Shown piece after piece: positions 1 to 23,896 of a DNA stretch of 24,022 bases. The notes beneath the pieces are model-generated. The model made no database searches. It saw only the letters and a program-made list of their open reading frames with translations, and was not told the origin of the DNA. The DNA comes from Candidatus Altiarchaeota archaeon. Lineage in GTDB: Archaea > Altiarchaeota > Altiarchaeia > IMC4 > SCGC-AAA252-I15. A program made the position numbers and the translations under genes. Every line of letters begins with the position of its first letter. The first letter of the stretch is position 1. The stretch lies in NCBI GenBank assembly GCA_043800255.1, contig JAZDNF010000002.1:1-24022 (forward strand), written 5' to 3'.

Positions 1-2
1 GT

Positions 3-494: not shown

Positions 495-502
495 AAGATC
501 AA

Positions 503-763
503 ATGAGAGATAAGATAATTAAAAAGATCAGGGATGATTTCAGGGAATTTAAAAAAATAAATATTGCTATATTATTCTTCATCATAATCCTCTTTCTAAC
601 TATGCAGATTATGATATCCTTTCTTGGCTATTCTAAAACAGGACATACTAATCTAACTATCAACGATTTTGGGATTACTTACATCAAGTTATTTTTACTA
701 CTACTCTTCATCCAACTTATAATCACAACAGTCAGATGCGTTTTCGTACATATCAGAGACTAG
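503..763 (+). CDS. Small 2-TM membrane protein, putative immunity protein
   Basis: 86 aa with two hydrophobic segments (IAILFFIIILFLTMQIMISFLG; FGITYIKLFLLLLFIQLIITTV); starts 8 nt after the upstream stop. Confidence 0.6.
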   Translation: MRDKIIKKIRDDFREFKKINIAILFFIIILFLTMQIMISFLGYSKTGHTNLTINDFGITYIKLFLLLLFIQLIITTVRCVFVHIRD

Positions 764-784
764 AGGATTGACGGATAAGAAAGC

Positions 785-1837: not shown

Positions 1838-1858
1838 AAACAAAAAGTAAGTGGGATT

Positions 1859-2197
1859 ATGAAAGACACGAATTTACTCATATTGTTACCTTTGCTTATC
1901 CTATTGATTTTACTACCACTAGCATTGATCCTATATTCACTGATTAACAACTATAGACTTATTATCCATCTGAAGAAAAACAAACCAAACGTTTTTAATA
2001 AAATAACTCTTAGGATACCAATTCTAAACATAAGACCCAGTACCCCCCCATTTGTTTTTGCAAACCCTCTTAATTACGTTCTTTACTTTTTTGATGATTC
2101 AGAAGATGATAGACAGAGTTTATCTTACAAAAATAGATCTAGATACGCATTTCTTAGTGCAATCATTCTTTTTATAATAAATTGGTGGCTACTATGA
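1859..2197 (+). CDS. Small membrane protein, putative immunity protein
   Basis: 112 aa with N- and C-terminal hydrophobic helices; directly downstream of an RHS-CT gene. Confidence 0.62.
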   Translation: MKDTNLLILLPLLILLILLPLALILYSLINNYRLIIHLKKNKPNVFNKITLRIPILNIRPSTPPFVFANPLNYVLYFFDDSEDDRQSLSYKNRSRYAFLSAIILFIINWWLL

Positions 2198-3192: not shown

Positions 3193-3218
3193 TAAGAAAA
3201 TAAAAACAGGGTATATGT

Positions 3219-3515
3219 ATGATGTACGGGCCTAACTTCCTGATATTGCTTGTAATTGCTATACCGGGAGTGATGATATGGGCTTCAATAGTTGACTTAA
3301 CTCAGAAACTATCAGATTATATAACGAAAAACAAACTCAAAATAAAAATTCATTGGGGTGTTTTTGATTTCCATTTTTACAAATGGTTACTTATGAAAAA
3401 CCCTCATGATGATGATATGACCTTAGCTTATAAGAAGAGAATTCAAAGACGATGGATCATCGGAATGTTCTTAATCCTAATGGCATTCTACAAAATTCTA
3501 GAGGGAGGTATCTGA
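3219..3515 (+). CDS. Small 2-TM membrane protein, putative immunity protein
   Basis: 98 aa with two hydrophobic ends; the acidic-then-basic segment before the last TM (DDDMTLAYKKR) resembles DDRQSLSYKNR in 1859..2197. Confidence 0.62.
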   Translation: MMYGPNFLILLVIAIPGVMIWASIVDLTQKLSDYITKNKLKIKIHWGVFDFHFYKWLLMKNPHDDDMTLAYKKRIQRRWIIGMFLILMAFYKILEGGI

Positions 3516-3676
3516 TGATTACGTCAATTACATCAGATACTACCACATACTATCTTGGAAAAGACTATGAGGTTAAAGAATACGCTAATGAAACAGTTCA
3601 CAATACCGTCTACTACTACGCTAACAATGAGCTGGTGGGGCGGATGCATTATGATGTTCATCTTATCATGGTTTAA
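3515..3676 (+). pseudogene. Truncated RHS fragment closing the cassette array
   Basis: TGATG-coupled start after GGAGGT; encodes TTTYYLGKDYEVKEYANETVHNTVYYYANNELVGR, then homology stops abruptly and the frame ends. Confidence 0.7.
3602..3643 (+). repeat. RHS junction repeat, copy 3 (NTVYYYANNELVGR)
   Basis: Identical peptide to copy 1 with 7 synonymous nucleotide differences. Confidence 0.9.
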
Positions 3677-3708
3677 AAAAAATGTGAGTTTAATCTGAGG
3701 TGGTGTGA

Positions 3709-4764
3709 ATGAACAACAAAAAATTCGCAGGAATCTGTTTGATAGGACTACTTATGGTTGTTGCGATATATGTCACGGCGGAGGGGATGATTAAGACAGA
3801 TAGTGGTTATATCCTCTTGGATCCAGCTGATGGTAATGTTTATGTGGATGGTGATTTGGTGCGGTATGGCGTAAATGATTTCATAATAAGATCACAGGCT
3901 TCGAAGGATATTGAATTCGATCCCTCTAGTGGCGCTATTGAAGTTGATGGCGGGGGTTATTTCTATAACCCCGGACAATTGGGTGTTTCATCCCAGAGAG
4001 CGTATATAGGTCACGACGGATCAGACGGTAAAGTAACAACAGCTATAGGAGATATTATCCTCGACCCTGCCAGTGGGAAAGTTTATGTTGATGGACAGTT
4101 GGGTGTTGGGATGGCTAGCCCGGTATTCAATTTGCATGTATACAGCGATGGTGATGCTCATGTTGCCGTGGACGGGGCCAGCAATCATGAAGTTTCTTAT
4201 AGGTTTTACAAGGCAGGCAGTCATGTGGCTCAATGGTTTGTGCCTGTGAGTAGCACAAACTTGGCGTTATGGACTAACGCCCAAAGGCTTACTATCGAGC
4301 AGGACGGCGATTTTGGCATTGGTGATTCGACACCTGACAGGGATTTGGACATTGGCTCCAGTAGTATAAACTCCGGAGACTCCGCATGGACTGTAGAATC
4401 CAGTAGGGACTTCAAGGATAACCTCGTCCGGTTGGAGAGAGACAAGAGCATCTTGGATAAGTGGCTTGACGTGAACGTCTACAGATACAATTACAAGGGG
4501 GATTATCTGAAAGAGACATTGGATTTAAACGAGACGAATGGTGACCTTGATGCATCGGCAAGTGTGATTCACACCGGTCTGATGGCCGAAGAATTTAACC
4601 CTGCGTTCCTGGGCTCAAACAAAACAGACATCAACTACGGCGATGTGACCTACCAGATGATATTTGCAATACAAGAGCTGATCGAAGAAAACAACAATCT
4701 GAAGCAAGAATTATGCACAAAAGACGCATCTTATGCATTTTGTAAAACTATGAACGGTGGTTAA
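3709..4764 (+). CDS. Secreted tail-fibre-like protein with C-terminal Peptidase S74-type intramolecular chaperone domain
   Basis: Signal peptide and GAGGTGG RBS; beta-rich repeats (ILLDPADGNVYVDG, IEFDPSSGAIEVDG, IILDPASGKVYVDG); G.LGVG...P...LHV and RLTI..DG.FGIG...P...LDI fibre motifs; C-terminal SSRDFKDN...YRYNYK...HTGLMAEE...INYG....IFAIQEL plus coiled coil. Confidence 0.8.
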   Translation: MNNKKFAGICLIGLLMVVAIYVTAEGMIKTDSGYILLDPADGNVYVDGDLVRYGVNDFIIRSQASKDIEFDPSSGAIEVDGGGYFYNPGQLGVSSQRAYIGHDGSDGKVTTAIGDIILDPASGKVYVDGQLGVGMASPVFNLHVYSDGDAHVAVDGASNHEVSYRFYKAGSHVAQWFVPVSSTNLALWTNAQRLTIEQDGDFGIGDSTPDRDLDIGSSSINSGDSAWTVESSRDFKDNLVRLERDKSILDKWLDVNVYRYNYKGDYLKETLDLNETNGDLDASASVIHTGLMAEEFNPAFLGSNKTDINYGDVTYQMIFAIQELIEENNNLKQELCTKDASYAFCKTMNGG

Positions 4765-4765
4765 C

Positions 4766-5620
4766 ATGAATAAGAAAAAGATCATGGGGATATGTTTGAT
4801 AGGGGTTTTAATCACAGTCGCGATTTTTGTGGCTGCGGACGGCACGGTTAAGACGAGTAGTGGGGATGTCAAGATATTCGGGCAGGGTCAGGCGACGTAT
4901 GGTGTGGGGGTAAGTTACAATAGTACAATGCTTTCAGCACCTTTTCCGGTAATTCAATCCTTAGGCAAGCAGATATTGCATGTGCGAAGTAATTTAGCTG
5001 ATACATGGTTTCAATTTGAAATAAGTCCAAGTGGTACAGGAACACAAGCAGCTTACTCAATGTGGGGGGCAGACAAAGCCTCAGGTGTTTCTGGCTGGGG
5101 TAGAGTCCAGCATAATAATAATTCCATGATTTTGGATACAGGAGGGATAGGTGGAGCAAGCGGGGGTCATATCATCTTAGAGCCAGAAAGCGGAAGAGTT
5201 TATATTGGCAGTTCAGGAGTAGCATCAACTTCAAAGGATTTGTATGCCAAAGCAGTTTTCACCGATAATGGCACTTGTGGTGAGTGGGATGTTGCCGGGG
5301 ATGCGAATTATGACACCGACTTACTGGATAGCATAACTGCCAACAATGGCGTGTGGGACTTGAGCAAACTTGTAAAGAAAGATGCGACGGGTCAAGTTGT
5401 ACAATCAGTCCTTAAAACCGAGTTAGTACCCGAAACAGTTGAAGTCTTTAATGAAACAACAATGGGACCGATGAGAGTGCCTACTGGCAGGATGGTGAAC
5501 TCAATGTGGGTTGACATGGGACAGTTGGATGGTTATATCATTGGTGTATTAAAAGCACAGCAGAAAGTCATAGAGAACCTTACGGCAAGCATTGAGGTAC
5601 TGGAGTCAAAATGCAGTTAA
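4766..5620 (+). CDS. Secreted fibre-like paralog with degenerate chaperone/coiled-coil C-terminus
   Basis: N-terminus MNKKKIMGICLIGVLITVAIFVAADGTVKTSSG is homologous to the previous gene; it shares the IILEPESGRVYIG repeat and ends VDMGQLDGYIIGVLKAQQKVIENL. ATG 4766 after GGTGG is preferred to GTG 4757. Confidence 0.65.
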   Translation: MNKKKIMGICLIGVLITVAIFVAADGTVKTSSGDVKIFGQGQATYGVGVSYNSTMLSAPFPVIQSLGKQILHVRSNLADTWFQFEISPSGTGTQAAYSMWGADKASGVSGWGRVQHNNNSMILDTGGIGGASGGHIILEPESGRVYIGSSGVASTSKDLYAKAVFTDNGTCGEWDVAGDANYDTDLLDSITANNGVWDLSKLVKKDATGQVVQSVLKTELVPETVEVFNETTMGPMRVPTGRMVNSMWVDMGQLDGYIIGVLKAQQKVIENLTASIEVLESKCS

Positions 5621-11560: not shown

Positions 11561-11623
11561 TTCCACCCTTTTTATACCCTTGACTTTTAATAGTTTATTA
11601 TAACCCGCAGGGGTTGCCCTAAA
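11561..11623 (+). promoter_or_regulatory. Putative oligo-T terminator followed by a TATA-like promoter for the surface-protein operon
   Basis: CCCTTTTTATA just after the nurA stop, then TTTTAATA/TTTATTTATA about 22-39 nt upstream of ATG 11624. Confidence 0.4.
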
Positions 11624-14600
11624 ATGCCAGTCAGAAGACGAGAGGAGGAGCAGACTTCCAGCAGCATGCTACTACCACTCGTCCTCGTCCTACTGATTCT
11701 TGCATATTATACTACTGGCATAAACTACTCAATAGCGGCAGACGACAACGCAAACCAGGCAGGGTGTGCTTCTGGAATTGAAAACTGCGATACCGGAGGC
11801 GCCGGAGGCACATGTAATACCGCAGACTGTGTGACAGCTTACGGATTCAATTGCGACGCAGATGGTCTATTCGAGTCTGGAAACCAGTACTGCTGCGGAG
11901 ACGATTCGAGCGAGAGTTATAAGGCGTCAACCGCGGCCGTGAACGTTTCAAGCTACTCTGACGACACGGACGCATGCTGTGACACTAGTACGGACTGCTG
12001 TGACAACAATGCATGCACTGCAAACAACGCCGCGAAGGACATCACCGGGGCAACTGGCACAGACGATGATGCATTCTGCTCCAGCAGTACTTGGATAGAC
12101 TGCGACACAAGCTCGACAACATGCACAGCATGTGACACTGCAGGGTCTTACCCGTGCACTGGTGCTGGCTGTTGGATAGTGGGAGGGGAATCAGCAGCAT
12201 TTGGCGAATATGATTCAGGCACGGCGACAGAATGCTGCGGAGACGATACAAACGAGTTTTTTATCACAGACAGCGTGGACGCCGGAGCCTGCTGCAATTT
12301 AGTCACCGATTGCGAAAGCGGTGGAACGTGTTATGCCTTGCTAGAGAGCATGCCTGGAGGCAGGATATGTGGCTCATATGGAGGTGGAGGTGGCGATGGT
12401 GGGTGTGCTGAAGTCTATGACAATACTGCTACCTCAGGCACAACAGTGAATACTGAGGATAGTACATGTAATTGTGACGCTACTGGAAGTGACGGGGCTG
12501 CGCCTAACATATGCGATTCAGACCAAGATGAAACAGCCGACGGTATCTGCGTCGACAATGACGGCGACGGAGGGGGGACGACGTTCAGCTGCGACGCAAA
12601 CGAGGTCTGCGACGACGGCACGTACTTTGCTGACGACTGCGGTGACTGCGCCTCAGAGGTGCAATGCGACTCCAATGTAAACTCAGGCGGAACACCATAC
12701 CAGTTCCTGGCTGACGGAATGTGCGGCGAAGCCGATGCTGACGATACAGGCGATGACTGCCTCACGGGAGCAGCATGCAGGGACTCAGAAGACTCAAACC
12801 ACCTGAATGAAGGATGCGAATGCGCGACAGCGATTACGGACTGGGACCCCTATGACTCAGACGGCGGGACAACGTTCTCGGCGAACGGGATATGCATAGG
12901 AAGCACGGCCGACACCTCAGGCGAAGCCTGCCAGAGCGGCAGCAACTACTACAACGACTGCAGCTCCTGCTCGTCAGGAGACGCCTGTGACATGGACATA
13001 ACAAACGGGGCATACAGTGCAGACGGAACCTGCTACTCAGACAGCTGCGTACTCGCCGGCGGAGAGGTGGTAAGCGGCGAATACGGGACAGGAGTTACAG
13101 GAGGGACTGCAATCACCTTCGACAGCGGGAACGAGAATGCTGACTGCGATGCTGTCACAGACCAGGGCTTGGGATGCGACAGAGACGAGAGCGGGGGCGC
13201 AACCGCTGAAGGCATATGCGCGGACGGAGCATGCGAAGTAAGTTTGGTGTCATGCGACTGCGTTGCCGGGACGGCATGCGCGACAACGGACATGACAGAC
13301 GCGAAATGCGCCAACAGCTGCACGGCAGGGAAGGCATGCGACTCAGACGTGGGAAGCAACGGGTTCGAGCAGGACGGCATATGCGAGAATGATGGAACAG
13401 TATCCTGCGACACCTCAGGGCATGTCGTATTCAGCGGAACCTCAACCTATTATGCAGCATGCGCTGACGTAGGCGGAGGGGACTCAGGACACGCCTGCGA
13501 CGGCACTCTGACGGCAGGCAGCTTCCTGCAGGCTGGAATCTGTACTGATGGAACAGCCTGCACGACATCGGGAGCAGCATACGAGTCAGACAACGCTACC
13601 GCAACAGTTGACAGCCTCAAAGCAGGCTGCACTGTGAATGGCGCCCCATGCATCTCAGACGTGACAGCACTCAGCGGAACAGCCGACGAGTCAGACTTCA
13701 ACGGCATATGCATCAGCGATGTATGTGATACAAACGTTGTGGCATGGAACAATGCCACAGGGTGGTCAGGCTCGTGCGCGAGCGTTGAAGGATACTGGTG
13801 CGAAGCACAAGGTGCAGGCGACACTGACAGATTGTTTGATGAAGAAGGCTACTGTGTGGACGACCAATCTGCCACAATAATCTGCTGCGGAGACGATTCC
13901 GGGGAGGACATCGCATCAGGCGAGACAGCAGACCCGGCGGATGTAGGGTTAGACGCTGAATGCGGTTGCTCATCCGATACTGATGAGAACATCTGCCACT
14001 CTGACGCTAACGGGACATTCACGCCAGATGGAATCTGCGCAAAAGACGCAACGAACGCATGGGACTGCGACGTGAACGAGGTCTGCGACGACGGCACTGA
14101 CACCAGAGCCGACTGCGCCCAATGCGACAGCCTGGATTCATGCTGGTCAGACGTCAATGGAAGCGCCTATGACACCTACAAGAATGGGGTATGCTCAGGC
14201 TCAGACTGCTGCACGCAGTTCATCAGAGGCAGCACAACAACCAACCTTGACGCATGCGGTATAGAGGCAACAGTCTGCGGCGCAGGTTTCGGGGGGAAGT
14301 ACTGTGACGACATATCTGACGGCACAGTCAGCTGGGGCGATACCGAGGAGACCAACAAATACAGATGCGATGAGTCTGAGACACAGTGCATACTCTGCGG
14401 CAATGACAATGCAGAGGCTGCAGGCTCAGGAAACCTTACCGGGACGAATGGCGAATGCGATGCAGCCTGCGGAGCGCCGACAGCGTGTGATGACCTTGAC
14501 TCCGGCACGGTAAGCGGTTCAGCCTGCTGTTACACACCGTCAGGAGGCGACTGCTCATCGCAGACGTGCATGTGCACAGAGGCGACACTATTGGATTCCA

Positions 14601-15883
14601 ATGACACCTGTTGTTACAATCCGACAGACTACTGCAGCGCTACGACAGGATGCACTAACACGACGGAGACATGCAGGGACTTCTGCGTCAACGACAATGA
14701 CGGAGGAGACTGCACGCAATCCCGCACTGACCCGACGAACAACGACACATGCTATCACAGTGAATCCTGCTCAGACAGCGGCTGCGCTTACAGCAGCAGC
14801 GCAACACTGTCGGCGAACACGTGCGATTACTGCAGTGCGACAGGCAAGGTTTCAGGAGACAACGCTCCTGCCCTGAGCAGCACCTGCGATTCAACATCAC
14901 ACTGCCCCAACTCTGGAACAAGGTACTGGGATGAGACTACAAGCAGGGCCGACGACTGCTGGGGCTTGAACGGTACAACAAAGATCAACACCGAAAACTA
15001 TCAGACCGGCTACATCTGCGCAGACCAGACTGTGGCCTGCTCATGCAACAACGCCGAATGCAGGTACGACTGCCAGGAGAGCGGATACGGCAGGGGGACA
15101 TGCACAAGCGGAGTCTGCGAGTGCAACAGCCCGCCGACACTCGGCGTCATAACATCGTCAGATGACGTCACGCCAACATACAACGCGTCCACTATTGTAA
15201 GGTGCAATGTGACGGTGACCGACGTTGACGGATACGATGACGTGGCAGTCGGTGGAGCGGTCAGAGGGGTCATCTGGCACTCAACATCAACATTCGGGTC
15301 AGTTGATGAGCTGCAGACGCACTATTCCAACAGCAGCTGCGGCCAACTGGCGAATGACGGGCTCAACTCCATCAACTACTCCTGCACATTCTACCTCAGA
15401 TGGTATGCCAACCCCGGCGAGTGGACATGCGCGATAAACGTGTCAGACCGCTTCAGCTCAAACGTCTCCAACTCCAAGGAAGACATAACAATAGCGTCGT
15501 TCAAGGGCATCGGAGCGCAGAATACCCTGGCGTTTGGGACGATGGGTCCTGGAGACGTTACCGCCCTCGGCAGGGAAGCCTCGCTTCAGGTCACCAACCA
15601 GGGAACAACAGAGGCTGACGTGCAATTGAGCGTCGGAGGAGATTTATACTGTGCAGTAGGCACGATACCCTCATCGAACATACACTATGATACGAGCAGC
15701 AAAGCCTACGCCAGCATGTGCGCAATGGGCTCATCCTGCCCGGCGGTCGAGGAGCAGTTCGACCTAAGGACAAGGAACAGCGCGGATACGTCAGACCCCT
15801 CGGAAACACTGTATTTTGGGATACACATACCGATAGGTGTGTCTGGCACGTGCACAACATCAGTGACGGTAACACAAGTCTAG
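11624..15883 (+). CDS. Giant secreted Cys/Asp/Gly-rich repeat protein with C-terminal pilin/WxL-like domain (putative tip adhesin)
   Basis: 1419 aa with an N-terminal hydrophobic signal; about 1130 aa of Cys-rich repeats (CCGDD x3; C.SD...DG(I/M/T/V)C about 10 times); the last 250 aa or so (from about 15125) align by eye with ORFs 17767 and 19850. Confidence 0.8.
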   Translation: MPVRRREEEQTSSSMLLPLVLVLLILAYYTTGINYSIAADDNANQAGCASGIENCDTGGAGGTCNTADCVTAYGFNCDADGLFESGNQYCCGDDSSESYKASTAAVNVSSYSDDTDACCDTSTDCCDNNACTANNAAKDITGATGTDDDAFCSSSTWIDCDTSSTTCTACDTAGSYPCTGAGCWIVGGESAAFGEYDSGTATECCGDDTNEFFITDSVDAGACCNLVTDCESGGTCYALLESMPGGRICGSYGGGGGDGGCAEVYDNTATSGTTVNTEDSTCNCDATGSDGAAPNICDSDQDETADGICVDNDGDGGGTTFSCDANEVCDDGTYFADDCGDCASEVQCDSNVNSGGTPYQFLADGMCGEADADDTGDDCLTGAACRDSEDSNHLNEGCECATAITDWDPYDSDGGTTFSANGICIGSTADTSGEACQSGSNYYNDCSSCSSGDACDMDITNGAYSADGTCYSDSCVLAGGEVVSGEYGTGVTGGTAITFDSGNENADCDAVTDQGLGCDRDESGGATAEGICADGACEVSLVSCDCVAGTACATTDMTDAKCANSCTAGKACDSDVGSNGFEQDGICENDGTVSCDTSGHVVFSGTSTYYAACADVGGGDSGHACDGTLTAGSFLQAGICTDGTACTTSGAAYESDNATATVDSLKAGCTVNGAPCISDVTALSGTADESDFNGICISDVCDTNVVAWNNATGWSGSCASVEGYWCEAQGAGDTDRLFDEEGYCVDDQSATIICCGDDSGEDIASGETADPADVGLDAECGCSSDTDENICHSDANGTFTPDGICAKDATNAWDCDVNEVCDDGTDTRADCAQCDSLDSCWSDVNGSAYDTYKNGVCSGSDCCTQFIRGSTTTNLDACGIEATVCGAGFGGKYCDDISDGTVSWGDTEETNKYRCDESETQCILCGNDNAEAAGSGNLTGTNGECDAACGAPTACDDLDSGTVSGSACCYTPSGGDCSSQTCMCTEATLLDSNDTCCYNPTDYCSATTGCTNTTETCRDFCVNDNDGGDCTQSRTDPTNNDTCYHSESCSDSGCAYSSSATLSANTCDYCSATGKVSGDNAPALSSTCDSTSHCPNSGTRYWDETTSRADDCWGLNGTTKINTENYQTGYICADQTVACSCNNAECRYDCQESGYGRGTCTSGVCECNSPPTLGVITSSDDVTPTYNASTIVRCNVTVTDVDGYDDVAVGGAVRGVIWHSTSTFGSVDELQTHYSNSSCGQLANDGLNSINYSCTFYLRWYANPGEWTCAINVSDRFSSNVSNSKEDITIASFKGIGAQNTLAFGTMGPGDVTALGREASLQVTNQGTTEADVQLSVGGDLYCAVGTIPSSNIHYDTSSKAYASMCAMGSSCPAVEEQFDLRTRNSADTSDPSETLYFGIHIPIGVSGTCTTSVTVTQV
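12589..12621 (+). repeat. Internal repeat CD(A/V)NEVCDDG, copy 1 (copy 2 at 14065..14097)
   Basis: 31 of 33 nt identical between the two copies. Confidence 0.85.
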
Positions 15884-15887
15884 GAAC

Positions 15888-16820
15888 ATGAAGAGAGGAC
15901 TCACGATTTTGGCTGTGATGGCGCTGGTCATCGGGCAATACTCTGTTTCAGCCAACAGCATCGGCGCAGGCCCTGCGACGATAATCTTCAGGGACATGAT
16001 GGCAGGCCAGACCTGGGATGAGACTATAACAGTAAGCAACGGAGGGCATGAAACGCTTAAGACTTCAATATCGGTCTCAGGGCTTCCGGATGGCTGGATT
16101 ACATTGGAGCCTGAAGACGGTCAGACTGATGTCAGCAAGGAATTCACGCTCAGCTCAAACGAGCCTCTAAGAATAAAAGCTAATCTCGATCTGCCTGAAG
16201 GTGTCGAAGCTGGAGTCTACCAGGGAACAGTAGTGATAAAATCAAAGCCAGCGGAGGCTTCAGGGTCAGGCATAGTGATGGGGGTCGGAGTGAGCCTCAG
16301 CCTGGACGTCATCGTCAACGTAACGAACGTTCCAAAGAGGGAGGCGAAAGGACTGTACATAGTAGCCTACAATGGGAAGAAGGATGATACGATACTCCTA
16401 GAGTGCACGTTCGAGAACACGGGAAACGTTGACATCATGCCAGAACTGCAATACAACTTACAGGACAGGAATGGCGATTCAATAGGCAGCGGGACGATAG
16501 CATTCACGCTTCCAAGGGCGAGGGGCTCACAGACGTTCAAGAACCAGATAATCGTGAACTCGTCTAAGACAGGAGAATACATGATAGACGTGAGAGCCTA
16601 TCTGGACAATAAGACAATATACGTGGAGTCAAAATACTTTAACATATACGAGGTGACCACTCTCGGAACAACGATGCCGACCACTGTCATAAGCGTGCCG
16701 ACGACGTCCATCCTACCGCCGACCCCAACCGCCGGATGGGGTAGGGGCTACCTGGTTTATGCAGGAATCTTGGCCATAGTCCTGGTTGTAGTCTATGCTT
16801 TAAGTAAGAGAAAAAAGTAA
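15888..16820 (+). CDS. Membrane-anchored Ig-like protein, paralog 1 (chaperone/DUF916-like)
   Basis: Signal peptide; mature start SIGAGPATIIF; YQGTVVI..P, GVGVSLSLDVIVNV, FENTGNV; Thr/Pro linker; C-terminal TM and basic tail. Confidence 0.7.
   Translation: MKRGLTILAVMALVIGQYSVSANSIGAGPATIIFRDMMAGQTWDETITVSNGGHETLKTSISVSGLPDGWITLEPEDGQTDVSKEFTLSSNEPLRIKANLDLPEGVEAGVYQGTVVIKSKPAEASGSGIVMGVGVSLSLDVIVNVTNVPKREAKGLYIVAYNGKKDDTILLECTFENTGNVDIMPELQYNLQDRNGDSIGSGTIAFTLPRARGSQTFKNQIIVNSSKTGEYMIDVRAYLDNKTIYVESKYFNIYEVTTLGTTMPTTVISVPTTSILPPTPTAGWGRGYLVYAGILAIVLVVVYALSKRKK
15958..16021 (+). repeat. 64-bp exact direct repeat, copy 1
   Basis: GCATCGGCGCAGGCCCTGCGACGATAATCTTCAGGGACATGATGGCAGGCCAGACCTGGGATGA, identical to 16899..16962. 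Confidence 0.95.
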
Positions 16821-16828
16821 TTCTTATC

Positions 16829-17770
16829 ATGAGTTTCCGGCCTATTTTGTCATGCCTGTTACCCCTCCTTCTTATGGCATCAACAGTGTCCTCAGCAGGC
16901 ATCGGCGCAGGCCCTGCGACGATAATCTTCAGGGACATGATGGCAGGCCAGACCTGGGATGAACCATTTACTGTCAGCGTCAACAGCAACGGAACATTAG
17001 ACGTCAGAGTCTCCGTCTCAGGAGAGCCGGCAGCATGGACTACGCTAACCGCCGATAATTACGACCTCTCAGATGACGGTGGATTAGAGCTCATCCCGTC
17101 TAAGCCTATGCGTGGGAGGGTTAACCTGCAGATTCCTGATAATCTGGAGACTGGGACTTATCAAGGCAATATCCATATAATGTCAGAGCCTGCGGACGGC
17201 GAAGGTGAAGGAGTAAGCGCTCCAGTAGGGATTGGAGTGAACCTTGATCTTATAATATTCGTCACAAACAAGCCACGTTACAGCGTGAAGGAGCACAATC
17301 TGAAAGTGTATGACAATTACCAGGGCGAACCGGTGATAGTGGAATACGCTATCGAGAATACCGGAAACATTGACATAGACGCTATATTGAGGTATGATAT
17401 CATGTCCTTGAATTCGACACTCGACAACAGGCGCTTCTGGGAAAGAAAGGTGAAGGTCGAACAAAACCGCGAAATGCAGAACTTTCTTGATGTGATACCT
17501 ATCCTAGACCTTCCTCTGGGAGGATACAATCTTACGTTCAGGATATCATTTGGAGAGGATGACCTGTCAGCTGACAGCAGAGGGTTCAGGATAATGCACC
17601 CTGGAGCCGAACTTCCGGTCTCAATACCCCCCTATACCCTAACCCCAACAACGCGGCCGCAGGAGCCGGAATCCACGCCAGAAACTAGCAGCCGCCTGAT
17701 TATTATATCTTTAGGATTAATTATTCTAACAGTCCTGATCAGATTGGCTGTAAGGGGCAGGAGAAAATGA
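16829..17770 (+). CDS. Membrane-anchored Ig-like protein, paralog 2
   Basis: Signal peptide; GIGAGPATIIF; YQGNIHI..P, VGIGVNLDLIIFV, IENTGNI; Pro/Thr linker; C-terminal TM and RGRRK. Confidence 0.7.
   Translation: MSFRPILSCLLPLLLMASTVSSAGIGAGPATIIFRDMMAGQTWDEPFTVSVNSNGTLDVRVSVSGEPAAWTTLTADNYDLSDDGGLELIPSKPMRGRVNLQIPDNLETGTYQGNIHIMSEPADGEGEGVSAPVGIGVNLDLIIFVTNKPRYSVKEHNLKVYDNYQGEPVIVEYAIENTGNIDIDAILRYDIMSLNSTLDNRRFWERKVKVEQNREMQNFLDVIPILDLPLGGYNLTFRISFGEDDLSADSRGFRIMHPGAELPVSIPPYTLTPTTRPQEPESTPETSSRLIIISLGLIILTVLIRLAVRGRRK
16899..16962 (+). repeat. 64-bp exact direct repeat, copy 2
   Basis: Identical to 15958..16021. Confidence 0.95.
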
Positions 17771-18666
17771 ACGGGAGAACGGTTAATTTTACAAGGGTGC
17801 AAGCGGGCATACTCATCATCGCATTAATAATACTCTCCATAAGACCTGTATTCAGCCAGACTACTGAGCTCAGGGTTTCAGTCCAGAACATAGCCCCTAC
17901 CCTGAATAACTCCAACCTGGAATGCAACGAACCTGTGGTGCTGACGTCCGGACTGACGACCAGACTGTACTGCAACGTTACAGCATCAGATCAGAACGGA
18001 TGGCAGGACATTTACCGGATTGACGCTATGCTATGGTATAACAATACAGCCAACAAGAGCAGCGCAGACAACTACTTAAACCACTACAGCATGGTTAACT
18101 GCAATCTCACGTCCGGCAGCGAACTCTCAAGGACAGCTGAATGCTACTTTGACATGCAATTCTTTGCCGACCCCGGGGAATGGACGATAGAATTCAACGC
18201 GAGCGACCAGGCTGGAACGTGGCAGACGTACAACGTGTCGTACATAACGGTTGTTGACTTCCTGGCGCTTTCCGCGACAGGCATCATAAACTTCGGGTCG
18301 ATGCTGCCAGGACAGATCTCACAGGATGTAAAGAGTGCGGTCATAAACAACACATGCAATGAGGAGATTGACCTACTACTCGACGCTCCCTCCGCCATAA
18401 CGTGCGTTACGGGTGGCATACCCCTCTCAAACATACACTATGACAGCCTTTCCACTGATTATAGCAGCATGTGCGGGTCTCTGACGACCGACGCAGACGA
18501 CACTTGCTATAGACTGAGCCAGGCATTTAACCTGCAGAAGAGCCAGACGAAGACAGGCAATGTCGAAGTGCCGACAAAGAACACCTACTGGCATATCAGC
18601 GTGCCTGAAGGAGTCTCAGGCCTGTGTAATGGAACAGTAACCTATACTGCGATAAAGTCGACATAA
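17767..18666 (+). CDS. Secreted disulfide-rich pilin/WxL-like subunit 1
   Basis: Signal peptide and no C-terminal anchor; motifs CNVTASDQNGWQDI, DNYLNHYS..C, C.F....ADPGEW, INFG...PG, IP.SNIHYD, YW.I.VP.GVSGLC; many N-x-S/T sequons. Confidence 0.7.
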   Translation: MNGRTVNFTRVQAGILIIALIILSIRPVFSQTTELRVSVQNIAPTLNNSNLECNEPVVLTSGLTTRLYCNVTASDQNGWQDIYRIDAMLWYNNTANKSSADNYLNHYSMVNCNLTSGSELSRTAECYFDMQFFADPGEWTIEFNASDQAGTWQTYNVSYITVVDFLALSATGIINFGSMLPGQISQDVKSAVINNTCNEEIDLLLDAPSAITCVTGGIPLSNIHYDSLSTDYSSMCGSLTTDADDTCYRLSQAFNLQKSQTKTGNVEVPTKNTYWHISVPEGVSGLCNGTVTYTAIKST

Positions 18667-18667
18667 T

Positions 18668-19843
18668 ATGGACACAAAAGCCCTAATCCTGTTGATAATA
18701 ACCTTGGCGGCGCTGGACTATGCTGCAGCCATAAGCATCGGCGCCGGACCATCTACCATAGAGTTCCAGGACATGGTACGGGGGAGCTTCGCTGAGGTTG
18801 AGGTTACGGTCAGCACAGCCGAAAAGGTCGATCTGAACTGCTCCCTGCAGGTCACGGGCGATGTCGCAAGGTGGATCACTATAAAGCCTTCACAGAGCTT
18901 CGTGCTTCCGTCAGAGGGAAGGCATAGTTTCATGGTAATATTACAGCTGCCGGGAGACGTCGCCAACGACGTCTACCGCGGGTCGCTGGACATAAAGGCA
19001 GCTCCGGTGACGCAGGTAACGACTGGAGCAGGCTTTGCGGTCGGGGCTGGAGTATCCCTTGACGTGATAGTCAACGTCACAGGCATAGAGAAGTCCACCT
19101 ACAGGATCGTGAGAGCATCAGTCGGGAACACCGAGATAGGCTACCCGATAAACTTCAAGATAGAGGTTTACAACGGGGGGAACGTTATCAACACCCCCGA
19201 CATTGTGGTTGAAGTGGTCAATGCAACGGGGAATACTGCCCTGGTCGTCAGGCACAATACGACCGCAATCAAGCCTTCAAGGAGCGGGACGGTCGTGTTT
19301 ACGGCGTCGTCTGAGAACCTGAGCGTTGGATTCCATGAGGCCAGGGTGAATTCGAACATGATACTCAAAGACGAGGCTTCCAACCGGATATACGAAGCCT
19401 ACGTCAACCACAAGAACGTAACATTCGAGCTGCTGCCTGAGGGCGTGTTAAGCGCGAATGGGACTTTCATGACCTTCCTACTGGACAAGAAGAAGGTCGA
19501 AGTCGGCACGCCGGTCCGTGTCACGGCGCTCTTCAAGAACACGGGGGAGGTGCCGCTGATAGCGAAACTCAAGGGTGAGTTAGTAGCCGGGCAGAATTTC
19601 ATAGCAGCATTCGAGAGCGACGAGCTTGAGATAGCGCAGGGCGAGTCAAAAAACCTGATAGCCTACTTCACCCCGCAGGCATCAGGCAAATTTCAGGTTA
19701 AAGGGACCATAACATACGGGAAGAAGGTGAGTGACGCAGAGGTCGTAGAGCTTGAAGTCTCAGGAACAAGCTACAGGCTGTATGCGATAATAGGCGTCGC
19801 GTTGCTCGTGGTTGTGGGAGTTTTTTATAAGACTAGGAGGTAA
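18668..19843 (+). CDS. Membrane-anchored Ig-like protein, paralog 3 (three domains)
   Basis: Signal peptide; SIGAGPSTIEF; YRGSLDI..AP, VGAGVSLDVIVNV, VYNGGNV, FKNTGEV, YFTP...G; C-terminal TM and KTRR. Confidence 0.7.
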   Translation: MDTKALILLIITLAALDYAAAISIGAGPSTIEFQDMVRGSFAEVEVTVSTAEKVDLNCSLQVTGDVARWITIKPSQSFVLPSEGRHSFMVILQLPGDVANDVYRGSLDIKAAPVTQVTTGAGFAVGAGVSLDVIVNVTGIEKSTYRIVRASVGNTEIGYPINFKIEVYNGGNVINTPDIVVEVVNATGNTALVVRHNTTAIKPSRSGTVVFTASSENLSVGFHEARVNSNMILKDEASNRIYEAYVNHKNVTFELLPEGVLSANGTFMTFLLDKKKVEVGTPVRVTALFKNTGEVPLIAKLKGELVAGQNFIAAFESDELEIAQGESKNLIAYFTPQASGKFQVKGTITYGKKVSDAEVVELEVSGTSYRLYAIIGVALLVVVGVFYKTRR

Positions 19844-19849
19844 TAAGTT

Positions 19850-20782
19850 ATGGCAGGCTCATGTCAGAAGAAGTTGAAACCATCGCATATAGCCCTCATA
19901 ATAACTTTCACAATGTTGTCAATGATTGGCGGAATGGAGGCAGTAACCGTCTCAACAACGGTAACAATCTCGAACAGGGACCCGGTAATAAAGTCGGACA
20001 CTCTATCCTGCACCTTCGGAACGGACTCTGATGGAGTATATCAGCCGAGCGTCGGCTCCCGCAACGACAACAGCGCCGGCAACTATCCTGTCTGGTGCAC
20101 GGTCATCGTATCAGACAACAACAGCTACCAGAACATCAGCAAAGTCTGGGCTGAATTCTATCATAGCAGTTCCAGCCTCGGCGCGGCTGACAACTATGAC
20201 GTCCACTATTCAACTCCTGACTGTTTGAGCCTTAACAACGGCTCCGGAACCGATGAGGGCTACAATTGCACCTTCGGAAGCTTCAAATACTATGCGAACC
20301 CTGGCACGTGGACTTTCATTGTGAACGTGTGGGATGGCGGCGCAGGCAATAATGCGAGCGACTCCAACACGCAGACCATAAACTCCCAGGCCGGCCTGGA
20401 GGTTCAGTCGCTGCTGAATTTCGGCCTCCTGTCGCCTGGCATGAGGACAGACCCGCTCAGCAAGACGCTCTCGATCAACAATACCGGGAATTCCAATGGG
20501 ATTGTCGTTGTAACAGGCTCGGATATGAACTGCAGCAGGTCGAGTCTGGCGGCAAGCTCTGACATCCCGTCATCGAACGTGAAGTACGCGTTCTCAGGCA
20601 TAAGCTATGCTTCCGCATGCGGCACGCTTGGGACTGGCGCAGAATGGGACTGCGACACCTTCAACATACAGGGCCGCGACGTCAGCTCATCAGATGACAT
20701 CAACGTCTCCTACTGGGGCATCGAAGTGCCTACGGGGGTGGGGGGGTTGTGTAACGCTCGTTTGACATTTGACATAACGTAA
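19850..20782 (+). CDS. Secreted disulfide-rich pilin/WxL-like subunit 2
   Basis: Signal peptide and no anchor; CTVIVSDNNSYQNI, ADNYDVHYS..C, CTF...KYYANPGTW, LNFG...PG, IPSSNVKY, YWGIEVPTGVGGLC. Confidence 0.7.
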   Translation: MAGSCQKKLKPSHIALIITFTMLSMIGGMEAVTVSTTVTISNRDPVIKSDTLSCTFGTDSDGVYQPSVGSRNDNSAGNYPVWCTVIVSDNNSYQNISKVWAEFYHSSSSLGAADNYDVHYSTPDCLSLNNGSGTDEGYNCTFGSFKYYANPGTWTFIVNVWDGGAGNNASDSNTQTINSQAGLEVQSLLNFGLLSPGMRTDPLSKTLSINNTGNSNGIVVVTGSDMNCSRSSLAASSDIPSSNVKYAFSGISYASACGTLGTGAEWDCDTFNIQGRDVSSSDDINVSYWGIEVPTGVGGLCNARLTFDIT

Positions 20783-20795
20783 GATGGAGGTAAAA

Positions 20796-22025
20796 ATGCA
20801 CAATAGAATCGGGAAAATCTGGGTTTTTTTCGCGGTGCTGGTTCTAGCCGGCAGTGCGACAGCGATTAGCATAGGGGCTGGGCCGTCTTCTCTCGACTTT
20901 CAGAAGATGGTCCGCGGCGGATACTCGCAGAAATTTATAACCGTCAGTACTGCCGGAGACGATAACCTCACCATAACCTTGGATGTTGAGGGCGAAATCA
21001 ACGACTGGATGACATTTGAGCCAGGCCGAGAGTTCAACCTCCCAGGCAGATCCCGTTTGGAAGTTAAAGCTATTGTGCAGCCTCCAGAGGAGATAGCGAA
21101 CGGCGTCTACACCGGGAAGATCCAGCTCAGGGCGGCTCCAGTGTCCGAAGTCACTGAGGGGACTGGCTTTTCAGTCGGCGCCGGCGTCAGGCTGTCGGTT
21201 ACTGTAGACATAACTGGGGAGGAGATAGTCGACTACAAGGTGAAGTCGGTGACGGTCTCCGACACCGAGGTAGGGTATCCGGTAAGATTCAACATAACCC
21301 TAGAGAACCTGGGCAACGTGAAAGTCCAGCCTAGCGTGACCTTCGAGGTATACGCCGACCCTGACAAACAGAACGTTCTCCAGACTCTGGAATACTCTGA
21401 CTTGGAGATACTTCCGACGACGACCAAGAGCGGCATACTAGAGATACCGACGGAGAACATGCCTGTCGGCAGGTACTGGACTGACGTCACATCCGACATA
21501 GGCGGAGTCCAGACACTCACCTTTGACGTGCTTGAGCCTGGGACGCTTGCCATCAAGGGCAACCTCGAGCAGGTCAAGCTGAGCAAGATATGGGTCAGCG
21601 TGGACGAGATAGTGAAGGTGGAGGCGCGGTTCAGGAACGAGGGTGAGCTCCTCATAGAGAATGCCAAGTTCATCGGAGAAGCTTATCTGATTGATGAGAA
21701 GTACAATACTGAGCAGCTTCTCGGTGTCTTCGAATCAGCGCCTGCCAGCGTGCCCGTCAATGAGGATGTGCTGCTAATCTCATATTTCACGCCCAAGAGG
21801 GACGGCAGGTACTCTATCAGAGGATACGTCCAGTACTCAGGCAAGAAGTCCTACGAGAAGGGCTCAGTATTAAACGTGCAGGCGCAGCCCAAGAATTACA
21901 TATACCATTATATCGGCGTCGGCCTTGTGGTGTTGCTTTTAGTCTATTACCTGATCCAGAAGGGTTCAGACGGGCGGACGAGGCGGTTCAAAAGGCTTTG
22001 GAGAGACTACCTTAGCTTAAAGTGA
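20796..22025 (+). CDS. Membrane-anchored Ig-like protein, paralog 4 (three domains)
   Basis: Start MHNR after GGAGGT (alternative start 20784); SIGAGPSSLDF; YTGKIQL.AAP, VGAGVRLSVTVDI, LENLGNV, FRNEGEL, YFTP...G; TM and a longer basic cytoplasmic tail. Confidence 0.7.
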   Translation: MHNRIGKIWVFFAVLVLAGSATAISIGAGPSSLDFQKMVRGGYSQKFITVSTAGDDNLTITLDVEGEINDWMTFEPGREFNLPGRSRLEVKAIVQPPEEIANGVYTGKIQLRAAPVSEVTEGTGFSVGAGVRLSVTVDITGEEIVDYKVKSVTVSDTEVGYPVRFNITLENLGNVKVQPSVTFEVYADPDKQNVLQTLEYSDLEILPTTTKSGILEIPTENMPVGRYWTDVTSDIGGVQTLTFDVLEPGTLAIKGNLEQVKLSKIWVSVDEIVKVEARFRNEGELLIENAKFIGEAYLIDEKYNTEQLLGVFESAPASVPVNEDVLLISYFTPKRDGRYSIRGYVQYSGKKSYEKGSVLNVQAQPKNYIYHYIGVGLVVLLLVYYLIQKGSDGRTRRFKRLWRDYLSLK

Positions 22026-22034
22026 GGTGACAAG

Positions 22035-22748
22035 ATGGAGAGAGTAAAGACAGCAATTCCGGGAGTCGATGAGATGATTGGGGGAGGGTTCCTCGAGGAT
22101 AGCGTCGTCATAGTGTCAGGCTCGCCTGGCATAGGCAAGAGCAATTTCGCGATGCAATACCTGGTAAACGGGGCTGAGAAGTTCAACGAGTCTGGAGTGT
22201 ACATCACCGTCGAGGACACGCCTGAGAACATCAGATTATATGGCAAACAGTTCGGATGGGATATCGAAAAGCTTGAGAAAGAGAACAAGCTAGCGATTGT
22301 CGCACAGCCCATATACTCTGAAGAAAAGGGCAAAGGGAAGGACGCGCAGAAGAGGGAGACGCTTGCAAGCGCGATAAAGAGGGTTGGCGCCAAGAGAGTG
22401 GTCTTGGATTCCGTGACCCTGTTCAAATACCTGTTCCAGGATGAGATATCAAGACGGGTTAACCTGCTGAACTTCATAAAGCAGGTGAAGGATGCGGATT
22501 GCACGACACTGTTGGTAGCAGAACAGCATGAATCGTCTTTTGACATAACCTACCTGGATGAGCACTTCCTGGCTGACGGTCTAATCCTGTTGTTCTGGAG
22601 CAGGCACAGGGACAAACATGAGAGATGCTTCAGGGTCGTGAAGATGAGGGGCACGAAGATAAGCTCTGACATCAGGCCGATGAAGATAACAGATAACGGG
22701 ATAATAGTGTACCCTACCCAGGTGCCGTTGTCTCTTTCCGACGAGTAA
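22035..22748 (+). CDS. Single-domain KaiC/RAD55-like RecA-superfamily ATPase
   Basis: RVKTAIPGVDEMIGGG, Walker A GSPGIGKS, YITVED, Walker B VVLDS, VVKMRGT; GAGGTGA RBS. Confidence 0.92.
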   Translation: MERVKTAIPGVDEMIGGGFLEDSVVIVSGSPGIGKSNFAMQYLVNGAEKFNESGVYITVEDTPENIRLYGKQFGWDIEKLEKENKLAIVAQPIYSEEKGKGKDAQKRETLASAIKRVGAKRVVLDSVTLFKYLFQDEISRRVNLLNFIKQVKDADCTTLLVAEQHESSFDITYLDEHFLADGLILLFWSRHRDKHERCFRVVKMRGTKISSDIRPMKITDNGIIVYPTQVPLSLSDE

Positions 22749-22781
22749 GGTACTCTAGCATCAGGCTCATCATAGGTTCAA

Positions 22782-23342
22782 ATGGCAGATGATAATGTAA
22801 CGGAGTCAGATTCCGGGTTTCAGGGAGCCCAGATTCTCGTTCTAGTGATACCTGACAAGGACTATAAGACCAAGTGGATGGAGGTCGTAAAGCAGCTCTC
22901 GAATCTGGACGGCAAGATATGCTATATCTCATTGAACGTGCCCTATGAGACCCTCATCAAGTCTTTCAAGATGTTGGGCATAGACGCCAGCAAGTTCTAT
23001 TTTGTCGATGCCATCACCCAAACCGCTCAGATGTCGCCTGAAACGGAAAACTGCGAGTTCGTCTCATCGCCTGGAGCTCTCACAGAATTAAGCCTCAGCA
23101 TATCCAACATACTCGACAGAAAGGGTTTCAACTATGTCATATTCGATTCGCTTTCCACGCTTCTGGTCTATGAGTCTGAGATCACGGTCACGAAGTTCGT
23201 GCACCAGCTGATTTCGAAGATCAGGATAATAGGTTCCAAGGCCATCTTCTCCATACTAAAGCAGGATACGTCATCGGTCCTGCTGAGGGACATCAACATG
23301 TTCGCCGACAGGATACTGGACATAGAAAACTGGCACAATTGA
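22782..23342 (+). CDS. Inactivated KaiC/RecA-like ATPase-fold protein (DUF7504/DUF835-like)
   Basis: CYISLNVPY, FYFVDAIT, SPGALTELS, VIFDSLSTLLVY; no Walker A. Confidence 0.75.
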   Translation: MADDNVTESDSGFQGAQILVLVIPDKDYKTKWMEVVKQLSNLDGKICYISLNVPYETLIKSFKMLGIDASKFYFVDAITQTAQMSPETENCEFVSSPGALTELSLSISNILDRKGFNYVIFDSLSTLLVYESEITVTKFVHQLISKIRIIGSKAIFSILKQDTSSVLLRDINMFADRILDIENWHN

Positions 23343-23347
23343 GGCAT

Positions 23348-23896
23348 ATGGAAGCAAAGATAGAACGCTCCGTGAGGGATAAGAGGACGTGTTTCATAAT
23401 CACCGAACCTGACAAGCTTAGATTAGCCCTCACAAAAGCGGTTGACGTCCTGTTAAGGGAGGGTTATCGATGTTTGTACATAAGCCTGAACGAGCCTCAT
23501 AGCAGCGTTGAGGCGATGTTCTCTAAGGCGGGAATCAGGTCAGACAGGCTATACTTTATCGATTGCATAACCGCGATCTCTCACAAAATCCCCCATAAGA
23601 AGGCGGAAAATGTCGAATATGCCGAAAATCCATCGCATTTGACTGCTGAGGGCAAGGTTATCAGGTCTATAAACCAGTTCCTGGCGTCTGTTCCCGGGAA
23701 GAAGATGATTGTGATTGACGCTCTTAGGACTGTGCTATTGTATAACGAGCCTGCCCTTGTAGAGAAGTTTATCAGCGAGGTTATAGAGAACTCCGGCGAA
23801 TATGGCGCTAAACTGGTGGTTTTCACCAGAAAAGACGATGATCAAAAGATTGTAAGGGACATATCCTTCAAGTTTGACTGTATCGTAGAGATCTAA
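23348..23896 (+). CDS. Second inactivated KaiC/RecA-like ATPase-fold protein
   Basis: Paralogous motifs LYISLNEPH, LYFIDCIT, NPSHLT, IVIDALRTVLLY; no Walker A; ATG 23348 after GAGG (alternative TTG 23339). Confidence 0.72.
   Translation: MEAKIERSVRDKRTCFIITEPDKLRLALTKAVDVLLREGYRCLYISLNEPHSSVEAMFSKAGIRSDRLYFIDCITAISHKIPHKKAENVEYAENPSHLTAEGKVIRSINQFLASVPGKKMIVIDALRTVLLYNEPALVEKFISEVIENSGEYGAKLVVFTRKDDDQKIVRDISFKFDCIVEI

Follow-up and report, generated by a model that had tools for sequence, protein, structure and literature searches.

A candidate usher-free, tethered-chaperone adhesin or fibre gene cluster with KaiC-type partners in an Altiarchaeota genome

We analyzed an entire contig of 24,022 bases from an uncultured Candidatus Altiarchaeota archaeon of groundwater (GenBank assembly GCA_043800255.1, contig JAZDNF010000002.1, C17 in our numbering), here called the window, which belongs to an archaeal genome bin of 1.75 Mb that is 93% complete. 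Ten open reading frames (ORFs; g1 to g10) lie in tandem on its forward strand between positions 11624 and 23896 (Table 1). We propose, with a confidence poised midway between acceptance and doubt, that this cluster specifies an archaeal adhesin or fibre system that is free of an usher, relies on membrane-tethered chaperones and carries a KaiC-type cytoplasmic module. An earlier note, made from the letters of the window, had described ten co-oriented genes separated by at most about 35 nt, and the distances from g1 through g10 are indeed 4, 8, -4, 1, 6, 1, 9, 33 and -4 nt. With an AT-rich spacer upstream of g1 and T-runs 3' of g10, a single operon is plausible.

All-against-all blastp sorted the genes into a subunit class (SUB; the C-terminal part of g1, g4 and g6), an anchored class (ANC; g2, g3, g5 and g7) and the paralogs g9 and g10. 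A hydrophobic, signal-like N-terminus is present in g1 through g7; only g2, g3, g5 and g7 also have a hydrophobic helix at the C-terminus, with basic residues behind it. The SUB module shared by g1 (residues 1145–1419), g4 and g6 is 29–33% identical (E 1e-26 to 1e-29), and the ANC proteins are mutually related at E 1e-15 to 2e-63. This recovers the two groups that the note had picked out by eye, namely three secreted proteins with a common cysteine-containing domain, one of them behind a giant repeat region, and four paralogous secreted proteins with a C-terminal transmembrane helix. Its closing trio of KaiC-type genes likewise stands, g8 having Walker A and B motifs and g9 and g10 being degenerate KaiC-like genes.

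The ANC proteins resemble known pilus chaperones in fold and, remotely, in sequence. An AlphaFold2 model of g7 built from 24 sequences (predicted local distance difference test score, pLDDT, 89.2) comprises three beta-sandwich domains, a transmembrane helix and a short cytoplasmic helix, with a low-confidence loop (residues 123–128) inside a long hairpin. Foldseek returned a list dominated by HYDIN-type ASH/PapD-like immunoglobulin (Ig) domains, which also held the Enterococcus faecium WxLIP bound to WxL (9i25_C, E 3.3e-9). When the hits were re-aligned, the apo WxLIP of the same species (9i1y_A) headed the list at Z 13.6, aligning across two domains (208 residues) with a root-mean-square deviation (rmsd) of 12.5 Å that is due to a different inter-domain angle. 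Practically level with it, the N-terminal domain of g7 (residues 27–145) superimposes on FimC, SfaE, Caf1M, PapD, FaeE, SafB and DraB at Z 12–13.5 and rmsd 2.1–2.7 Å over about 105–110 residues, with chaperone residue 1 falling on g7 residue 27–29.

Sequence profiles point the same way. When a profile built from 24 ANC sequences was searched against 177,635 PDB sequences, the two best hits were both to EfmWxLIP1 (E 1.1e-4; profile positions 74–255 on chain residues 88–270, 180 aligned positions), a match that spans the hairpin and the second domain. PF11797 (WxLIP_HBD, formerly DUF3324) matches 8 of the 24 family members at E <= 0.01 (best 2e-7), and PapD Pfam families are absent from the hits of the four window proteins (E <= 0.1) and of the 24 members (E <= 0.01). 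Because of the top PDB profile match, the fold match and the PF11797 hits, we regard ANC as distantly related to the WxLIP/DUF916-DUF3324 proteins, though probably outside that family as Pfam defines it. The note's comparison of the anchored Ig proteins with DUF916/DUF3324 proteins and PapD chaperones thus gains support, to which the predicted complex described below adds. The WxLIP of enterococci was recently shown to be a membrane-anchored pilus chaperone (bioRxiv 10.64898/2026.10.17.759780). Among our control genomes, PF11797 also has a match in Methanocaldococcus jannaschii, and PF06030 in both Methanosarcina acetivorans and Thermotoga maritima; WxLIP-like domains therefore extend beyond the Bacillota, to which complete WxL operons are reported to be confined.

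The SUB proteins form a large family. An exhaustive HMMER search found 3,735 cluster representatives at E <= 1e-3, 982 of them at E <= 1e-30; word-indexed searches had given 2 and 4 matches, which in light of this number reflects a limit of the index. Of the 149 representatives listed, 86 are small and consist of the module only, and 63 are large fusions in which the module follows 100 to about 5,900 extra residues; in 124 of the 149, at most 4 residues separate the end of the module from the C-terminus. An AlphaFold2 model of g4 (29 sequences, pLDDT 86.3) shows a signal helix, a segment (residues 24–44) that is unpaired coil in the monomer, a complete FN3/PKD-like sandwich (domain 1, residues 40–165; Z 9–10 to many such domains) and a second beta-sandwich (domain 2, residues 170–299). 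Four SUB cysteines are invariant in an alignment of 29 sequences and nearly so among 113, and they probably form disulfide bonds. The cysteine counts are 129 in g1, 9 in g4 and 9 in g6, and g4 and g6 carry 10 and 8 N-glycosylation sequons. The payload of g1 (residues 1–1144) repeats, about ten times, a module that closes with DG-[ITVMY]-C; D and G each make up 13% of the payload's residues, T 12% and C 10.5%, and neither Pfam nor NCBIfam has a match to it.

Consistent with the earlier note's idea of subunits handled by membrane-tethered chaperones, structure prediction placed an ANC and a SUB protein in a specific complex. We modeled g7 (residues 28–370, 48-row alignment) with g6 (residues 32–310, 109-row alignment) in three runs, alongside three controls. 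The runs scored 0.81, 0.81 and 0.80, and the best of the three controls scored 0.00; of 157 solved complexes 116 attain the 0.81 mark, as do 2 of 215 mismatched pairs, a calibration that applies only roughly because we used our own alignments. At least 81% of the contacts, which number 164–199, were common to the runs, with a partner pLDDT of at least 83. The predicted interface sets an N-terminal strand (residues 28–36) and a hairpin (119–138) of g7, the two most conserved elements of ANC, against residues 178–194 and 299–310 of g6. In the model, g7 residues 129–134 pair in rising order, and hence in parallel, with g6 residues 303–309 and touch residues 184–189 on their other side; the ANC strand thereby comes to lie within the C-terminal domain of SUB, flanked by that domain's first strand and, in parallel orientation, by its last. 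No other element of the ANC family is as regular as this strand: hydrophobic residues occupy positions 129, 131, 133, 135, 137, 139, 141 and 143 in 77–100% of 48 sequences, in alternation, and glycines stand at 128, 132 and 134. The predicted geometry is that of donor-strand complementation, as with chaperone-usher chaperones and with ElrE, which complements its subunits by a donor strand (bioRxiv 10.64898/2026.10.17.759780). The model establishes this likeness and supports, short of proof, binding between the two proteins.

A second strand may link subunits to one another. Small SUB proteins begin, after the signal peptide, with a strand-like motif, V-x-[VI]-x-N-x-x-P, that lies outside the predicted ANC interface. 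Its two hydrophobic positions are hydrophobic in 96% and 93% of the 86 small proteins versus 65% and 51% of the 63 large fusions, and neighbouring core positions are 88–97% hydrophobic in both groups alike. Retention of this strand in small SUB proteins and its loss from large fusions is what would be expected of a donor used in a shaft and not at a tip, and on this indirect evidence we propose that the motif may serve as the donor strand for the next subunit.

The arrangement recurs in other genomes, which argues against chance. The full cluster is found in five relatives (G007, G012, G013, G002 and G006) in the order of a large SUB protein, ANC and SUB genes, a g7 ortholog, a KaiC gene and g9- and g10-like genes; a sixth (L036) has ANC-SUB-g7-g8 on a 5.4-kb contig. 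The co-occurrence across archaeal genomes on which the earlier note's proposal turned therefore holds in six further Altiarchaeota genomes. The outcome that the note had named as its other ground for refutation, shared domains folding as self-contained modules with no predicted inter-subunit interface, was not observed either. Clustering of all ORFs from the six syntenic loci revealed no further conserved family besides opposite-strand shadows and one family of small ORFs (72–122 aa, in overlapping frames on both strands) located a few hundred bases 3' of the g10 ortholog in four relatives. Within the order, 15 of 41 genomes, this one among them, have SUB proteins (E <= 1e-3), and within the phylum 19 of 61 species genomes do (E <= 1e-10); many of the negative genomes are incomplete. 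Identity to the window falls from the cytoplasmic toward the exposed proteins: g8, 66–74%; g9, 43–56%; g7, 43–48%; g5, 29–35%; SUB, 24–31%. The Atlas clusters closest to g4 and to g7 are archaeal families without a name, labelled mostly Nanobdellota or Woesearchaeota (DPANN), and one near cluster of g7 comes from candidate phyla radiation (CPR) bacteria (score 0.96, a lead only); this taxonomic range rests on Atlas labels, with few members each, and a few source names.

Three KaiC-type genes accompany the surface proteins. The g8 product matches PF06745 at 201.6 bits (cut-off 26.6) and retains both Walker A and Walker B; its best NCBIfam match is KaiC_arch_3, at 154 bits, under the cut-off of 249. 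A score of 35.5 bits places g9 above the PF06745 cut-off although it lacks a P-loop, and g10, at 20.5 bits, falls below it and is joined to g9 by paralogy (E 1.5e-16). A g8 ortholog directly follows the g7 ortholog in 7 of 7 genomes, this one counted, and these orthologs are 66–74% identical to g8, versus at most 36% for the paralogs within its own genome. Beyond its transmembrane helix, g7 ends in a tail of about 20 residues (392–413; positions 21960–22025) that is nearly invariant in 18 orthologs; no other part of this otherwise fast-changing surface protein is as well conserved. The tail is present in 16 of 48 ANC relatives, which constitute the g7 type. A scan of 185,579 species genomes for its pattern gave five confirmed loci, three labelled Altiarchaeota/Altiarchaeales and two "uncultured archaeon" on contigs of same-family relatives. 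The invariable synteny, the conservation of g8 orthologs and that of the tail tie the trio to the cluster, and most likely the tail docks the g8-g9-g10 module, as far as synteny and conservation can indicate. KaiC-like ATPases were reportedly proposed by Makarova and colleagues in 2017 as archaeal signalling hubs. Elsewhere in the genome, domains like those of g9 and g10 are fused within a larger protein (C1:14443-17214, 923 aa) or stand beside KaiC paralogs (C7:225515-227395).

Together these observations suggest how the system might operate. All seven extracytoplasmic proteins would be exported via ordinary signal peptides, and the four ANC proteins, held in the membrane by their C-terminal helix, would act as tethered PapD/WxLIP-like chaperones whose strand, as predicted for g7 and g6, completes and holds the SUB fold. 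The g4 and g6 proteins would then join head to tail as the N-terminal V-x-[VI]-x-N-x-x-P strand of one replaces the chaperone strand in the next. The g1 protein, which keeps the acceptor module and has a degenerate N-terminal strand, would sit at the tip and present its Cys-rich acidic adhesin part. The base might remain tethered to the membrane by the last ANC protein or by a donor-strand transmembrane protein encoded elsewhere in the genome. Finally, docking of g8, g9 and g10 on the g7 tail may place assembly or display under cytoplasmic control.

Candidates for such a base exist in the same genome. Four other proteins share the signal peptide, strand motif and domain 1 of SUB, lack domain 2, and have a transmembrane helix in their C-terminal part (Table 1); some also contain ANC-like segments, and one (C14:44471-46135) is encoded directly upstream of a KaiC paralog (C14:43713-44474). 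We take these as a lead to donor-only, membrane-anchored bases, by analogy with PamR, the transmembrane terminator of the Pam pilus discussed below.

Several results weigh against our proposal. Non-chaperone ASH/MSP/HYDIN domains score on g7 as well as chaperones do (CEP192, Z 13.3; Scs2, Z 13.0), and a PapD-like fold alone is consequently no proof of a chaperone. The second-best PDB sequence match of the ANC profile is HYDIN (E 1.9e-4), and the window's own four ANC proteins have no match to the WxLIP Pfam models PF11797 and PF06030, which also found nothing elsewhere in the 93%-complete genome. For SUB, fold searches returned only generic tandems of Ig, FN3 or macroglobulin type (best Z about 10), with no pilin or WxL chain standing out among the matches listed; the best Foldseek match was CfaE-CfaB, at E 1.1e-4 but with a template-modelling (TM) score of 0.33, and the SUB profile found nothing among PDB sequences. 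The complex score is the model's own confidence and may reflect memory of solved chaperone-pilin complexes. We know of no donor-strand pilus with a KaiC partner. An outer membrane, if present in this lineage as described for Ca. Altiarchaeum hamiconexum (PMC4460559), would require a conduit for the fibre, and no usher was found: the earlier note had seen none in the window, and PF00577 has no match in the whole 93%-complete genome, whereas the E. coli control matched.

The alternative that survives best is that each ANC protein is a permanent anchor of its cognate SUB protein, strand complementation being a non-covalent tether, so that anchor-cargo pairs stand on the surface without forming a fibre. 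We consider this rather doubtful, although it has real merits. Four ANC genes for three SUB genes, with an ANC gene of its own after each SUB gene, fit fixed pairs better than a catalytic chaperone, and bare SUB-then-ANC pairs recur in G024, G002, G016, G004 and G027. The ANC stalks (formed in g2 and g3 by a linker rich in Pro and Thr, in g5 and g7 by an additional, third Ig domain) would be needless for a mere chaperone; the predicted complex is both confident and large; and the SUB module, which forms the C-terminal end of proteins as long as 6,131 aa, recalls a sorting or anchoring module. Yet the 86 small representatives carry no cargo beyond the module, and it is exactly these that retain the N-terminal strand motif, outside the predicted chaperone interface. 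Nor does ANC-SUB pairing exclude polymerization, since the Elr chaperone also remains at the base of its fibre (bioRxiv 10.64898/2026.10.17.759780).

It is very unlikely that these are ordinary envelope Ig proteins, with ANC of COG1361/CARDB/NEW3 type and SUB a secreted Ig protein serving an S-layer-like coat or substrate binding without complementation, and KaiC a neighbouring signalling module: ANC members do match HYDIN-type Ig (11 of 24), CARDB (7 of 24) and NPCBM_assoc (5 of 24) models, COG1361 S-layer clusters appear in the Atlas structure search, but at TM-scores of 0.35–0.38, and the genome holds at least 14 further tblastn matches to g8 outside the window, whereas the top PDB match in both sequence and structure is WxLIP and not an S-layer protein, the predicted complex is specific and built from the two most conserved ANC elements, and g8 orthologs stand apart from those paralogs in identity and in their place directly after g7.

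Among described systems, the Pam pilus of CPR bacteria comes closest to the proposed tethered-chaperone system in overall architecture. It comprises PamA/B/E pilins, a PamT tip, PamC and PamD as transmembrane-anchored PapD-like chaperones and PamR as a transmembrane terminator; its pilins have two domains, an N-terminal beta-sandwich and a C-terminal acceptor Ig domain, and it is reported as exclusive to CPR bacteria (PMC13278184, 2026). Like Pam, the cluster encodes several anchored PapD-like chaperones (here four ANC proteins) and no trans-envelope machine, and a donor-strand transmembrane protein is the proposed base, for which this genome has candidates. The g4 model has two beta-sandwich domains, and the chaperone strand is predicted to enter domain 2, an arrangement that may correspond to the acceptor layout of Pam pilins. 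In Pam, by contrast, the donor is an inter-domain linker strand, while the conserved candidate donor here is N-terminal, and a KaiC module is absent from Pam; the resemblance concerns architecture.

The Elr/WxL pilus consists of ElrE, a DUF916/DUF3324 chaperone with a transmembrane helix (the WxLIP), the WxL pilins ElrD and ElrC, and the tip adhesin ElrA (bioRxiv 10.64898/2026.10.17.759780; PMC10599100). In both systems a C-terminal helix anchors the chaperone, no usher takes part, the chaperone strand (here as predicted) runs parallel to the subunit's C-terminal strand and leaves its N-terminal strand free, and a large protein bears the same C-terminal module behind a variable payload; to this is added the probable remote kinship of ANC with WxLIP. 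They differ in that SUB is a two-domain, cysteine-containing module without a WxL domain, in having one ANC per SUB as opposed to one chaperone per operon, and in an archaeal host without a cell wall that adds three KaiC-type genes and a conserved cytoplasmic tail. An LPxTG protein was not noticed here either, although no search aimed at LPxTG motifs or sortases was made; the last strand of the module forms the end of the SUB proteins. The earlier note's comparison with the layout of WxL/csc clusters accordingly holds for the chaperone and fails for the subunit: PF13731 (WxL) has no match in the SUB proteins or in the genome, no PDB sequence matches SUB, and WxL is the nearest named Atlas cluster to g4 at 0.76, a lead only. 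Since no test made here places SUB among WxL domains, what the two systems have in common is the mechanism and the chaperone, not a subunit family. A 2026 screen of 4,698 genera reported the Elr/WxL pilus from Bacillota only (bioRxiv 10.64898/2026.10.17.759780).

With chaperone-usher pili (Fim, Pap, Caf1, CFA/I, Csu), the cluster shares the fold of the chaperone N-terminal domain, a predicted complementation by G1-like and N-terminal A1-like strands, and a subunit whose C-terminal strand is the end of the protein; it differs in lacking an usher, in a tethered and not soluble chaperone, in an extra complete subunit domain and in the absence of PapD Pfam membership. Archaeal strand-donation filaments, namely Sulfolobus threads, the TasA-like bundling pili of Pyrobaculum, Pyrodictium cannulae and haloarchaeal Tat-dependent pili, likewise consist of heavily glycosylated subunits, Ig-like or rich in beta structure, that are linked through donated strands, but they are described as chaperone-free, whereas a chaperone-like partner is encoded beside every subunit here. 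Our full-text literature search found no archaeal chaperone-type system of this kind. We rejected a link to hami, the characteristic appendages of Ca. Altiarchaeum: the reported hamus subunit architecture of S_Layer_N, NosD and FKBP_C (PMC4975002, PMC4460559) differs, g1 through g7 have no such Pfam hits, and none of the phylum's 61 genomes has a match to PF05123. We also set aside type IV pilin signals, as the N-termini, judged by eye, resemble common signal peptides in which small residues precede the start of the mature protein.

Table 1. Features of the cluster in the window, with related loci on other contigs (C, same genome; L, relatives)
Feature	Position	Strand	Basis and remarks
AT-rich spacer, 63 nt, TATA-like stretches	11561..11623	+	Read directly; upstream of g1; candidate archaeal promoter
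g1, entire	11624-15883	+	ORF
g1 payload: signal-like N-terminus and ~1,100 aa of acidic Cys-rich repeats	11624..15055	+	Composition, motif copies; candidate tip adhesin part
g1 C-terminal SUB module, two beta-sandwich domains, up to protein end	15056..15883	+	blastp to g4 E 1e-29, to g6 E 2e-26; profile match 1146-1419
g2, ANC: signal peptide, two Ig-like domains, Pro/Thr-rich stalk, C-terminal transmembrane helix	15888..16820	+	Weak NPCBM_assoc, 21 bits, below cut-off
g3, ANC: architecture as g2	16829..17770	+	35% identity to g2, E 2e-47
g4, small SUB: signal peptide, N-terminal strand motif, domain 1 (FN3/PKD-like), domain 2	17767..18666	+	AlphaFold2 model, fold searches
g5, ANC: three Ig-like domains, C-terminal transmembrane helix	18668..19843	+	35% identity to g7, E 2e-63; HYDIN/VesB-like Ig 25.3 bits, just below cut-off
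g6, small SUB, predicted partner of g7	19850..20782	+	blastp; complex prediction
g7, ANC: PapD/WxLIP-like N-domain, two more Ig domains, transmembrane helix 373-391, conserved cytoplasmic tail	20784..22025	+	AlphaFold2 model, fold, PDB profile, complex
g8, single-domain KaiC-family ATPase, Walker A and B	22035..22748	+	PF06745 E 1.5e-59; motifs; orthologs directly after g7 orthologs
g9, KaiC-like, without Walker A, probable pseudo-ATPase	22782..23342	+	PF06745 35.5 bits; DUF7504 29.9 bits
g10, g9 paralog, without Walker A or B	23339..23896	+	blastp to g9 E 1.5e-16; DUF7090 25.9 bits and PF06745 20.5 bits, both below cut-off
Domain-1-only transmembrane proteins	C7:209811-210743, C7:206937-209777, C8:174318-177077, C14:44471-46135		
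Small ORF family 3' of g10 orthologs	L022:14471-14698, L023:17231-17516, L024:17061-17384, L025:5177-5545	both	Window contig ends earlier

The remainder of the window holds other genes. On the 5' side of the cluster are genes for a geranylgeranyl reductase, a homoserine dehydrogenase, an ACT-domain protein, a topoisomerase and NurA. Positions 1–4800 form a low-GC block (37–39%, versus about 50% for the genome) in which two ORFs (785–1837 and 2182–3192), each followed by a small ORF, look paralogous and have weak RHS-repeat matches (E about 7e-4, below cut-off), and a third (3709–4764) encodes a protein with a Peptidase_S74 (endosialidase chaperone) domain; the block may consist of orphan polymorphic-toxin cassettes or be a mobile island at the contig end. 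No Rfam family was found in the window. The genome has no methyl-coenzyme M reductase alpha gene, and we rejected a methanogen or ANME origin on that ground. Four groundwater DNA runs from one study contain 12–33% of the sampled words, and no RNA run is among the runs listed for them.

Usher-free pili with membrane-anchored chaperones have so far each been stated to be confined to one bacterial group, the Bacillota or the CPR bacteria. If confirmed, the cluster would be the first system of this kind in Archaea. A fuller version of the proposal seems unlikely to us: that this is the first chaperone-dependent donor-strand fibre of Archaea, that, in contrast to all bacterial counterparts, it is coupled to the cytoplasm by the g7 tail, which recruits KaiC and two pseudo-KaiC proteins through which ATP or phosphorylation signals gate or energize assembly or release, and that the module is widespread in DPANN as a host-attachment organ. 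Many KaiC-like ATPases of archaea are orphans, and the g7 tail would give one of them a concrete candidate partner; the cluster would likewise be a candidate surface or attachment apparatus for Altiarchaeota lineages without a hamus gene. Were Altiarchaeota to have such a system, homologous or convergent, strand exchange guided by chaperones would become a principle shared across domains of life, and an extension to DPANN archaea, which the nearest Atlas clusters suggest as a lead, would strengthen it.

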